From NCBI RefSeq assembly GCF_048403405.1, contig NZ_CP183129.1: 64,000 nucleotides of DNA, one strand, 5' to 3'. Within the stretch, counting starts at the first letter, position 1. Each line of letters begins with the position of its first letter. Origin of the DNA: Escherichia coli (GTDB lineage: Bacteria; Pseudomonadota; Gammaproteobacteria; Enterobacterales; Enterobacteriaceae). The translations under genes were made by a program, and so were the position numbers. Of the stretch, positions 22,153-22,566 are shown piece after piece. A model generated the notes under the pieces. That model had not been told where the DNA came from, did no database searches, and saw only the letters and a list, made by a program, of their open reading frames with translations.

Positions 22153-22566
22153 ATGTAAATTATCAATAAAAGGCGTTATTTCATTATTATTTATAATGAG
22201 TTATGAGTATTTATTTTATTACGGTTGGTAGGAATATACAAAAAGTATTTTTTCAGTTGGTTCGCTATTTTAAAAAGGAATTCATATAAGAAATAAAAAA
22301 TAAGTATGTTATTTATTGGTAGATTGAATTGACAGGGTGCAGAAATCTGAGGGTAAGAAAAATCAGCAACAACAATTCACTACATCAACAGACCAGCAAT
22401 CGAGTGCCGCGATACGCTGGAAATACCCGCAGATTGAACTGGCGGGTGGTGTGACTGGCATCAGTCAGTGATGACTTTTTAGCAAACTATGTTCGACCAG
22501 TCAGCATATTTACTGACTGGTCGAATTAATTGACAATGATGTTAACTTACTCTTTTTCCTGATGCT

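Follow-up and report, generated by a model that had tools for sequence, protein, structure and literature searches.

The palindrome at 22492-22525 of a 64,000-nt stretch of Escherichia coli DNA (NCBI RefSeq assembly GCF_048403405.1, contig NZ_CP183129.1; the whole stretch is referred to below as the window, and positions are counted from its first letter) lies between the 3′ ends of the convergent genes elaD and yfbK, and is read here, with moderate confidence, as a stem-loop in the 3′ untranslated region that is shared by the two transcripts. The elaD transcript, once terminated by Rho, would have its end defined and shielded from exonucleases by the stem-loop, and yfbK transcription would meet in it a weak intrinsic terminator or barrier. 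The original prediction, made from the letters of the window, had offered an RNA processing or stability hairpin, a protein-binding palindrome and a recombination scar as possible explanations; the first is favoured by the present analysis, the second is disfavoured and the third is refuted. The RNA hairpin is favoured because the palindrome is central between the two convergent stop codons and because its helix is kept by compensatory and wobble-compatible changes, as well as because the elaD-sense strand lacks a U-tract and is C-rich downstream of the stem, with a published Rho region nearby.

Anatomy and stability of the stem-loop

The element, TTCGACCAGTCAG-catattta-CTGACTGGTCGAA, is an inverted repeat with arms that are complementary at 13 of 13 positions and a spacer of 8 nt, and G–C pairs make up 7 of the 13 pairs. 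Arm pairing, folding and a shuffle control all bear out the perfect 13-bp repeat with an 8-nt loop that had been described from the letters. As had been proposed at that time, both strands were folded as RNA and the stem was found to be strongly stable in both directions, with −25.6 kcal/mol and a z-score of −6.3 for the plus (yfbK-sense) strand and −27.1 kcal/mol and a z-score of −7.4 for the minus (elaD-sense) strand, in both cases relative to dinucleotide shuffles. In the elaD-sense RNA a U·G pair and an A–U pair lengthen the stem to 15 bp and leave a 4-nt loop, AAUA. Over the window and K-12 together the folding energies of the stem span −25.6 to −29.6 kcal/mol, with z-scores of −6 to −8.6. 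Within the window the stem is the longest perfect short-loop inverted repeat, and among 60 dinucleotide shuffles a single one had arms of at least 13 bp, which corresponds to 0.017 per shuffle on average; the 13-bp palindrome is thus far above the chance expectation. The 34-mer occurs once in the window, even when three mismatches are allowed. The related motifs that had been noted just before the stem, GACTGG and CAGTCAG, are indeed present, at 22453-22469, where they are the final codons of yfbK.

In K-12 MG1655, elaD (2382713-2383924, plus strand) and yfbK (2383995-2385722, minus strand) converge on a 70-bp spacer, and the palindrome occupies the middle of this spacer (2383941-2383974). In the window the yfbK stop codon (22469-22471) lies 20 nt before the stem and the stop codon of the normal elaD frame (22542-22544) lies 16 nt after it. 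The distance of about 40 bp between the elaD stop and the stem, as first given, is correct for the open reading frame of the window, which ends at 22567-22569, but not for the normal elaD frame; the longer distance arises because a +1 frameshift in elaD of this strain, a T6 run, moves the stop codon.

Conservation and covariation

The variant sample consisted of 104 loci, taken from E. coli genomes and from metagenome contigs anchored on the yfbK tail, and a fully paired 13-bp stem was found in 96 of them. The K-12 form, with G in the loop and a 15-16-bp stem closed by a 4-nt loop, accounts for 85 loci and the window form, with A in the loop, for 11; the others are a C-to-T change in the right arm of the type seen in strain 042 (three loci), the divergent WL297 allele (one locus) and singletons (four loci). 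Among the E. coli alleles, variable sites number 1 of 26 nt in the arms and 1 of 8 nt in the loop, against 5 of 36 nt in the flanking spacer, and the arms are almost invariant whereas the surrounding 521 bp differs by up to 11% between alleles.

The WL297 allele, which is carried by two genomes, is altered at five arm positions. Compensatory changes are found at two pairs (A–U to G–C and C–G to A–U), and the three further changes give U·G on the elaD-sense RNA and C·A on the yfbK-sense RNA, with loss of the DNA symmetry at 3 of the 13 arm positions. The elaD-sense RNA of this allele folds into a continuous helix of 12-13 bp (minimum free energy −21.6 kcal/mol, centroid −20.5), and the yfbK-sense RNA folds into an interrupted helix (minimum free energy −16.8 kcal/mol, centroid −14.1). 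Over the seven distinct alleles, paired cells amount to 96.2% on the elaD-sense strand versus 91.4% on the other strand, and of the seven differences that are transitions, six preserve pairing in the elaD sense. These patterns are suggestive of selection on the RNA helix, with a leaning towards the elaD-sense strand.

As a separate observation on this lineage, WL297 (locus L005, 2900-3140) and one other genome have only 75-80% identity to other E. coli over the final ~70 nt of elaD, the adjoining spacer and what is left of yfbK, while the rest of ElaD, which is shorter at 389 residues, is 91% identical; the 3′ segment of WL297 looks like a recombinant from an unsampled lineage.

Terminator anatomy and the two tails

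The stem of 13-15 bp, with about −22 to −29 kcal/mol, resembles that of an intrinsic terminator, which is expected to be G+C-rich, ~5-15 bp long and closed by a short loop. The tails that follow it do not show the expected U-run (about five or more of eight positions, starting 0-2 nt from the stem): UUAAUUGA has four of eight and CAUAGUUU has four of eight, all of them distal. A consensus terminator scan called the stem on neither strand. When the plus-strand tail TTAATTGAC is compared with the minus-strand tail CATAGTTTG, only the former is moderately T-rich: the yfbK-sense tail UUAAUUGAC, which contains UUAAUU, has a tail score of 2.23, at the 96th percentile of window positions, whereas the elaD-sense tail CAUAGUUUG is not U-rich and has a score of 0.64, at the 60th percentile. 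A d'Aubenton-Carafa-type score was +1.2 for the yfbK direction in K-12, which is near the threshold, and −30 to −36 for the elaD direction; the formula was combined with modern energy parameters, and these values are indicative only. The tail-score percentile was relied upon because the d-score as implemented is poorly calibrated, giving +36 for a clear terminator at 4900-4931 and −15 for a plausible one at 23913-23935. The earlier statement that neither strand has a T-run directly after the stem is strictly true, with the qualification that the yfbK-sense tail is still moderately T-rich, and the conclusion drawn from it, that this is no canonical intrinsic terminator, stands for the elaD-sense strand; in the yfbK sense the element is a borderline case.

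On the elaD-sense strand the anatomy agrees with that expected of a protective stem of a Rho-terminated transcript, i.e. a stable stem-loop downstream of a gene without a following U-rich tract. The first 100 nt past the stem on this strand contain 31 C and 17 G in K-12, a C/G ratio of 1.82 that may be rut-like; in the window the ratio is 1.32 and rises to ~3 further on. In the yfbK-sense direction the ratio past the stem is 0.71.

Published transcript data and proposed mechanism

The evidence for Rho dependence in this region is taken from the literature. In the list of Adams et al. (2021; PMC7815308, supplementary file 2), MG1655 2383800 (+), on the strand of elaD, is a region of Rho termination, with 165 and 21 reads in the 800 nt upstream and downstream, respectively, in untreated cells, 264 and 122 reads with bicyclomycin, and a Rho score of 3.63 (p = 5.8e-8). 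By our own arithmetic, the downstream count when Rho is blocked is 46% of the upstream count, whereas, if coverage were even and every transcript ended at the stem, no more than ~22% (174 of 800 nt) would be expected; the stem alone therefore does not stop elaD-sense transcription. Dar & Sorek (2018; PMC6061677) reported that Rho-terminated E. coli transcripts end precisely just past stable stem-loops without U-tracts, that such stems protect against PNPase and RNase II, and that rut sites lie immediately downstream.

In the elaD direction, which is the minus strand in the window, it would be Rho and not the hairpin that stops transcription. Rho may load on the C-rich, G-poor RNA just past the stem, the heterogeneous elaD 3′ ends that result would be trimmed by 3′-to-5′ exonucleases back to the 15-bp stem, and the stem would set and protect the end of the mature elaD mRNA. 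In the yfbK direction, on the plus strand, the stem followed by UUAAUU is probably a weak intrinsic terminator or pause site, and a stop in this direction may limit antisense transcription into elaD.

Several observations weigh against this assignment. The Rho region was called with 800-nt windows and its peak lies inside elaD, 141 nt upstream of the stem, a gap that is within the resolution of the method. The Term-seq data of Adams et al. (PMC7815308), which cover three growth conditions, contain no 3′ end at 238392x-238398x or anywhere within ~40 nt of the stem, and neither elaD nor yfbK is entered in the supplements of TERMITe and SMRT-Cappable-seq; these missing 3′ ends are weak evidence because both genes are poorly expressed in the laboratory. 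With respect to the helix, the observed covariation score was reached by 27-28 of 500 column shuffles, and the covariation comes largely from one divergent lineage of two genomes. The common 042-type variant (CTGATTGG), which gives G·U on the yfbK-sense strand and A·C on the elaD-sense strand, opposes the strand preference. In addition, the comparison is entirely within E. coli, and much of the conservation may be due simply to recent common ancestry.

The elaD-yfbK stem shares with the stems of Dar and Sorek (PMC6061677) the presence of a stable stem-loop a few to tens of nucleotides past the stop codon without a U-tract, and may also share with them the C-rich, G-poor downstream sequence (C/G of 1.82) and, from the bicyclomycin-sensitive termination reported on the elaD strand, the dependence on Rho. 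It is longer and more perfect than most of them and belongs to a convergent gene as well, and its 3′ end and its protection from exonucleases are predicted ones. As in REP and BIME elements, the palindrome is extragenic and lies in a 3′ untranslated region, and it is of the kind proposed to stabilise the upstream mRNA against exonucleases; unlike these elements and ERIC, the stem is not dispersed but is found at one locus per genome. It also bears no resemblance to the REP consensus. The closest positional counterpart is found in the elaD-less (B2-type) yfbK-rbn spacer, in which a hairpin 11 nt after the yfbK stop codon plays the same positional role. This hairpin has an unrelated sequence (TCTGTTTGCC/GGCAAACAGA) with a 10-bp stem and a 23-nt interior, and is analogous but not homologous; its presence would agree with a hairpin being generally required at this position.

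A bidirectional intrinsic, Rho-independent terminator with degenerate U-tracts is the most serious alternative, although we regard it as unlikely. According to this explanation the stem, perhaps together with NusA and NusG or with head-on polymerases, releases both the elaD and the yfbK transcripts. The high stability of the stem, its central position between convergent stop codons, the 96th-percentile UUAAUU tail on the plus strand and the near-threshold score of the yfbK direction all agree with it. Ju et al. reportedly described bidirectional intrinsic terminators between convergent genes in Nature Microbiology in 2019; like these, the elaD-yfbK stem is a single symmetric hairpin that lies in a short convergent spacer and could be read from both strands. 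In those terminators an A-tract typically flanks the hairpin on one side and a U-tract on the opposite side, which gives each strand a U-tract of its own; the elaD-yfbK stem is partly U-rich (UUAAUU) on one side only. The tail and strongly negative score of the elaD direction, and the passage of transcripts through the stem when Rho is blocked, speak against release by the hairpin in that direction.

Should the assignment of the stem as a shared 3′ element be correct, it would provide a clean single-copy case of one stem serving two convergent genes by two termination routes, and, if the hairpin does set the 3′ end of the elaD mRNA, the stem should be kept in cloning or expression studies of elaD, which encodes a deubiquitinase of pathogenic E. 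coli and has poor expression under laboratory conditions. The element is otherwise an ordinary one that matters little beyond annotation, and the useful outcomes are contextual or negative: the loss of yfbK did not create the palindrome as a scar, deletions are frequent at the locus, and this strain has no working copy of either flanking gene.

Distribution and rearrangements of the locus

The recurrence of the palindrome in other genomes, a check that accompanied the original prediction, was established: the 70-bp spacer was matched in 4,201 of 5,426 complete E. coli genomes, with the same stem at one locus in each and at least 90% identity in all but three. The spacer search gave a median of two places per genome, the second of which was taken to be a self-match of the palindrome on the reverse strand; under a stricter E-value one place per genome was obtained. 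The stem of K-12 is identical to that of the window, and the loops are distinguished by a single base, which is A in the window and G in K-12. The region is matched by 4,196 E. coli genomes, 2,577 of them with the yfbK-deleted arrangement of the window. The remaining ~1,600 genomes align only from 22432 rightward, i.e. over the last 40 nt of yfbK, the spacer and elaD, and those inspected carry yfbK, which is intact in all but one.

Beyond the E. coli genomes, the palindrome was absent from phage records, and six matches in a plasmid collection were all E. coli records, several of them chromosome-sized. Two viral contigs matched the 10+10-nt core with unrelated flanks; our own rough estimate of the chance expectation is about one such match. 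ElaD relatives were detected neither with the ElaD sequence nor with an ElaD alignment when representative genomes of other species, one for each species, were scanned, a YfbK protein search returned E. coli sequences only among the 120 matches listed, and a metagenome scan anchored on the yfbK tail yielded 92 stretches with no new divergent allele.

Phylogroup B2 has been reported to be elaD-negative (PMC12575377). In elaD-less genomes a yfbK encoding 581 residues converges straight on rbn across a 120-bp spacer, and homology between the elaD-containing and elaD-less types stops just after CTGGCG (about 22445 in the window) and restarts at the rbn stop codon (23953). On the basis of this alignment, the palindrome belongs to an elaD-specific block of low G+C content and lies 46 nt from the yfbK-side edge of the block.

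The elaD-yfbK locus is a hot spot of rearrangement and deletion. A group of 213 E. coli genomes has a gap of only 355 bp from yfbL to rbn, in which just 108 bp of elaD, from its 5′ end, survive (for example, strain 200164; locus L006, 1900-2256), and in one strain (FDAARGOS_1249; locus L003, 2942-4010) an insertion of the IS5 family replaces the hairpin and the 3′ end of yfbK. Three deletion configurations and the IS5-family insertion were recognized in all, and their junctions do not coincide with the palindrome. The yfbK remnant of WL297 keeps ~50 nt more of the 3′ end than that of the window, which implies that the yfbK deletions are nested or independent.

An absence of any current function is improbable to our minds, and more so than the bidirectional terminator. 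The palindrome could in that case be neutral sequence, for instance a terminator relic of the elaD donor, that is conserved through the close kinship of its carriers; its restriction to E. coli, its perfect state in a window in which both flanking genes are inactive and its loss from the 213 genomes and the IS5-insertion strain without obvious consequence all accord with this. Chance is nevertheless an unlikely cause of the origin or survival of a perfect palindrome of 13 bp, the arms are nearly constant within 521 bp that diverge by up to 11%, and WL297, with its five altered arm positions, keeps 13 pairs on the elaD-sense RNA.

A role of the palindrome at the DNA level, as an operator for a dimeric protein or as a recombinase or transposase site tied to the acquisition of the low-G+C elaD block, is still less probable. 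The 13+13-bp symmetry is perfect in nearly all genomes, the element lies within the elaD-specific block close to its yfbK-side boundary and the locus is rich in rearrangements. However, the palindrome stands between two gene ends with no promoter-like sites in 21900-22900, it occurs only once, since neither the opposite end of the block nor any other place in E. coli carries another copy, phage matches are lacking and the plasmid-collection matches are those noted above, the rearrangement junctions lie elsewhere, and WL297 loses the DNA symmetry at three positions while RNA pairing is kept on one strand. The sole published binding peak nearby, for LldR by genomic SELEX, lies in yfbK ~1.2 kb away and has an unrelated motif. 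Very improbable indeed is the particular version in which the palindrome is a DNA site that remains from, or continues to serve, whatever process inserted the elaD block between yfbK and rbn, such as the target of a recombinase or of a hairpin-binding transposase; if true, it would mark how an effector gene entered E. coli.

Some further candidates were rejected. A scar of the yfbK deletion is refuted by the identical stem in yfbK-containing genomes, including K-12, and by the position of the deletion junction, 22431/22432, 59 nt to the left. A repeat family or mobile element was rejected on the basis of the single copy in E. coli, by the absence from phages and by plasmid-collection matches that are all E. 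coli records. Matches to Rfam 15 were at chance level (E of 1.5-7, bit scores far below gathering) and all were to eukaryotic small nucleolar RNA or microRNA models. The GACCAG and CTGGTC half-sites here are in everted order and 20 nt apart, as judged against the FadR consensus. An operator of the LldR/FadR type was rejected on the location of the genomic SELEX peak inside yfbK and on its different motif: the LldR peak, listed for 'elaD > yfbK > yfbL' (PMC10272880) in older K-12 coordinates, corresponds to MG1655 ~2385143, inside yfbK and ~1.2 kb from the hairpin, in a part of yfbK that is not in the window. As for terminal inverted repeats around the elaD block, there is one 13-nt near-match only, at chance level and off the right-hand boundary. 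It consists of GATTGAACTGGCG at 22433-22445 in the yfbK tail and CGCCAGTTCAGTC at 23980-23992 in the 3′ end of rbn, which form a 12/13 inverted repeat bracketing the block; a stretch of 1.6 kb should contain roughly one match of this quality by chance, the right copy lies ~30 nt inside rbn, and the repeat is probably a coincidence.

Flanking genes and neighbouring features

The gene order in the window is nuoM, nuoN (plus strand), yfbM (minus, 20575-21078), yfbL (minus, 21181-22152), the yfbK remnant, the palindrome, elaD (minus), rbn (minus), elaA and elaB, and the features around the palindrome are collected in Table 1.

Table 1. Features of the elaD-yfbK region in the window.
Feature	Position	Strand	Remarks
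Diverged yfbL-yfbK intergenic region and 5′ yfbK remnant (first 100-150 nt of yfbK)	22153..22432	+	Start codon ATG changed to ATA; deletion junction 22431/22432
yfbK 3′ remnant (last 39 nt, including its own stop codon, 22469-22471)	22433..22471	+	Holds CAGTCAG and GACTGG
Spacer from yfbK stop to stem	22472..22491		In elaD-sense RNA, the first 20 nt past the stem, CAUAGUUUGCUAAAAAGUCA, without a U-tract
Stem-loop	22492..22525		Arms 22492-22504 and 22513-22525, 8-nt spacer
Spacer from stem to normal elaD stop	22526..22541		yfbK-sense tail UUAAUUGACAAUGAUG, partly U-rich
elaD (deubiquitinase), pseudogene here	22542..23765	−	Normal-frame stop 22542-22544; canonical ATG 23765-23763

The gene yfbK had rightly been taken to be missing from the window, although the deletion is internal, of ~1.5 kb, and both a 5′ and a 3′ remnant stay in place, the latter with the native stop codon; the 44-residue open reading frame at 22337-22471, annotated in RefSeq as 'hypothetical protein' WP_001328566.1, is this yfbK remnant. 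elaD carries two frameshifts. The +1 frameshift lies at 22571-22576, where all other alleles examined have T5 or four T with an extra G in a run of the same length. The −1 frameshift at 23695-23698 (about codon 23), where an A5 run of the coding strand is cut to A4, is found neither in K-12 nor in the other alleles examined, and owing to it the canonical ATG at 23765 reaches a stop after 26 codons. The elaD frameshifts also account for the listed 405-residue open reading frame, an artefact with a TTG start at 23784, and strain 2012C-4221 (the identical RefSeq genome) annotates elaD as a frameshifted pseudogene. Both flanking genes are therefore dead in this strain, and the stem-loop is here probably a retained relic because elaD is frameshifted and yfbK is deleted. 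The stretch 22526-22541 is the most variable of the intergenic region, with four variable sites in 16 nt.

Two further features of the neighbourhood were noted. The nuoN-yfbM gap (20510-20574) is only 65 bp long in the window, as in B2-type genomes, while K-12 has 2.6 kb with yfbN, yfbO and yfbP at this position, which points to an insertion in K-12 or a deletion in this strain. In the rbn-elaD spacer, just past the rbn stop codon, a second hairpin at 23913-23935 (AACAGGGC/GCCCTGTT) is followed by a T-run on the plus strand only, which is the antisense strand of both rbn and elaD. Its appearance is that of a terminator of antisense transcription through elaD and, on the other strand, of a U-less 3′ hairpin for rbn, and this one-sided design is common to it and the elaD-yfbK stem.
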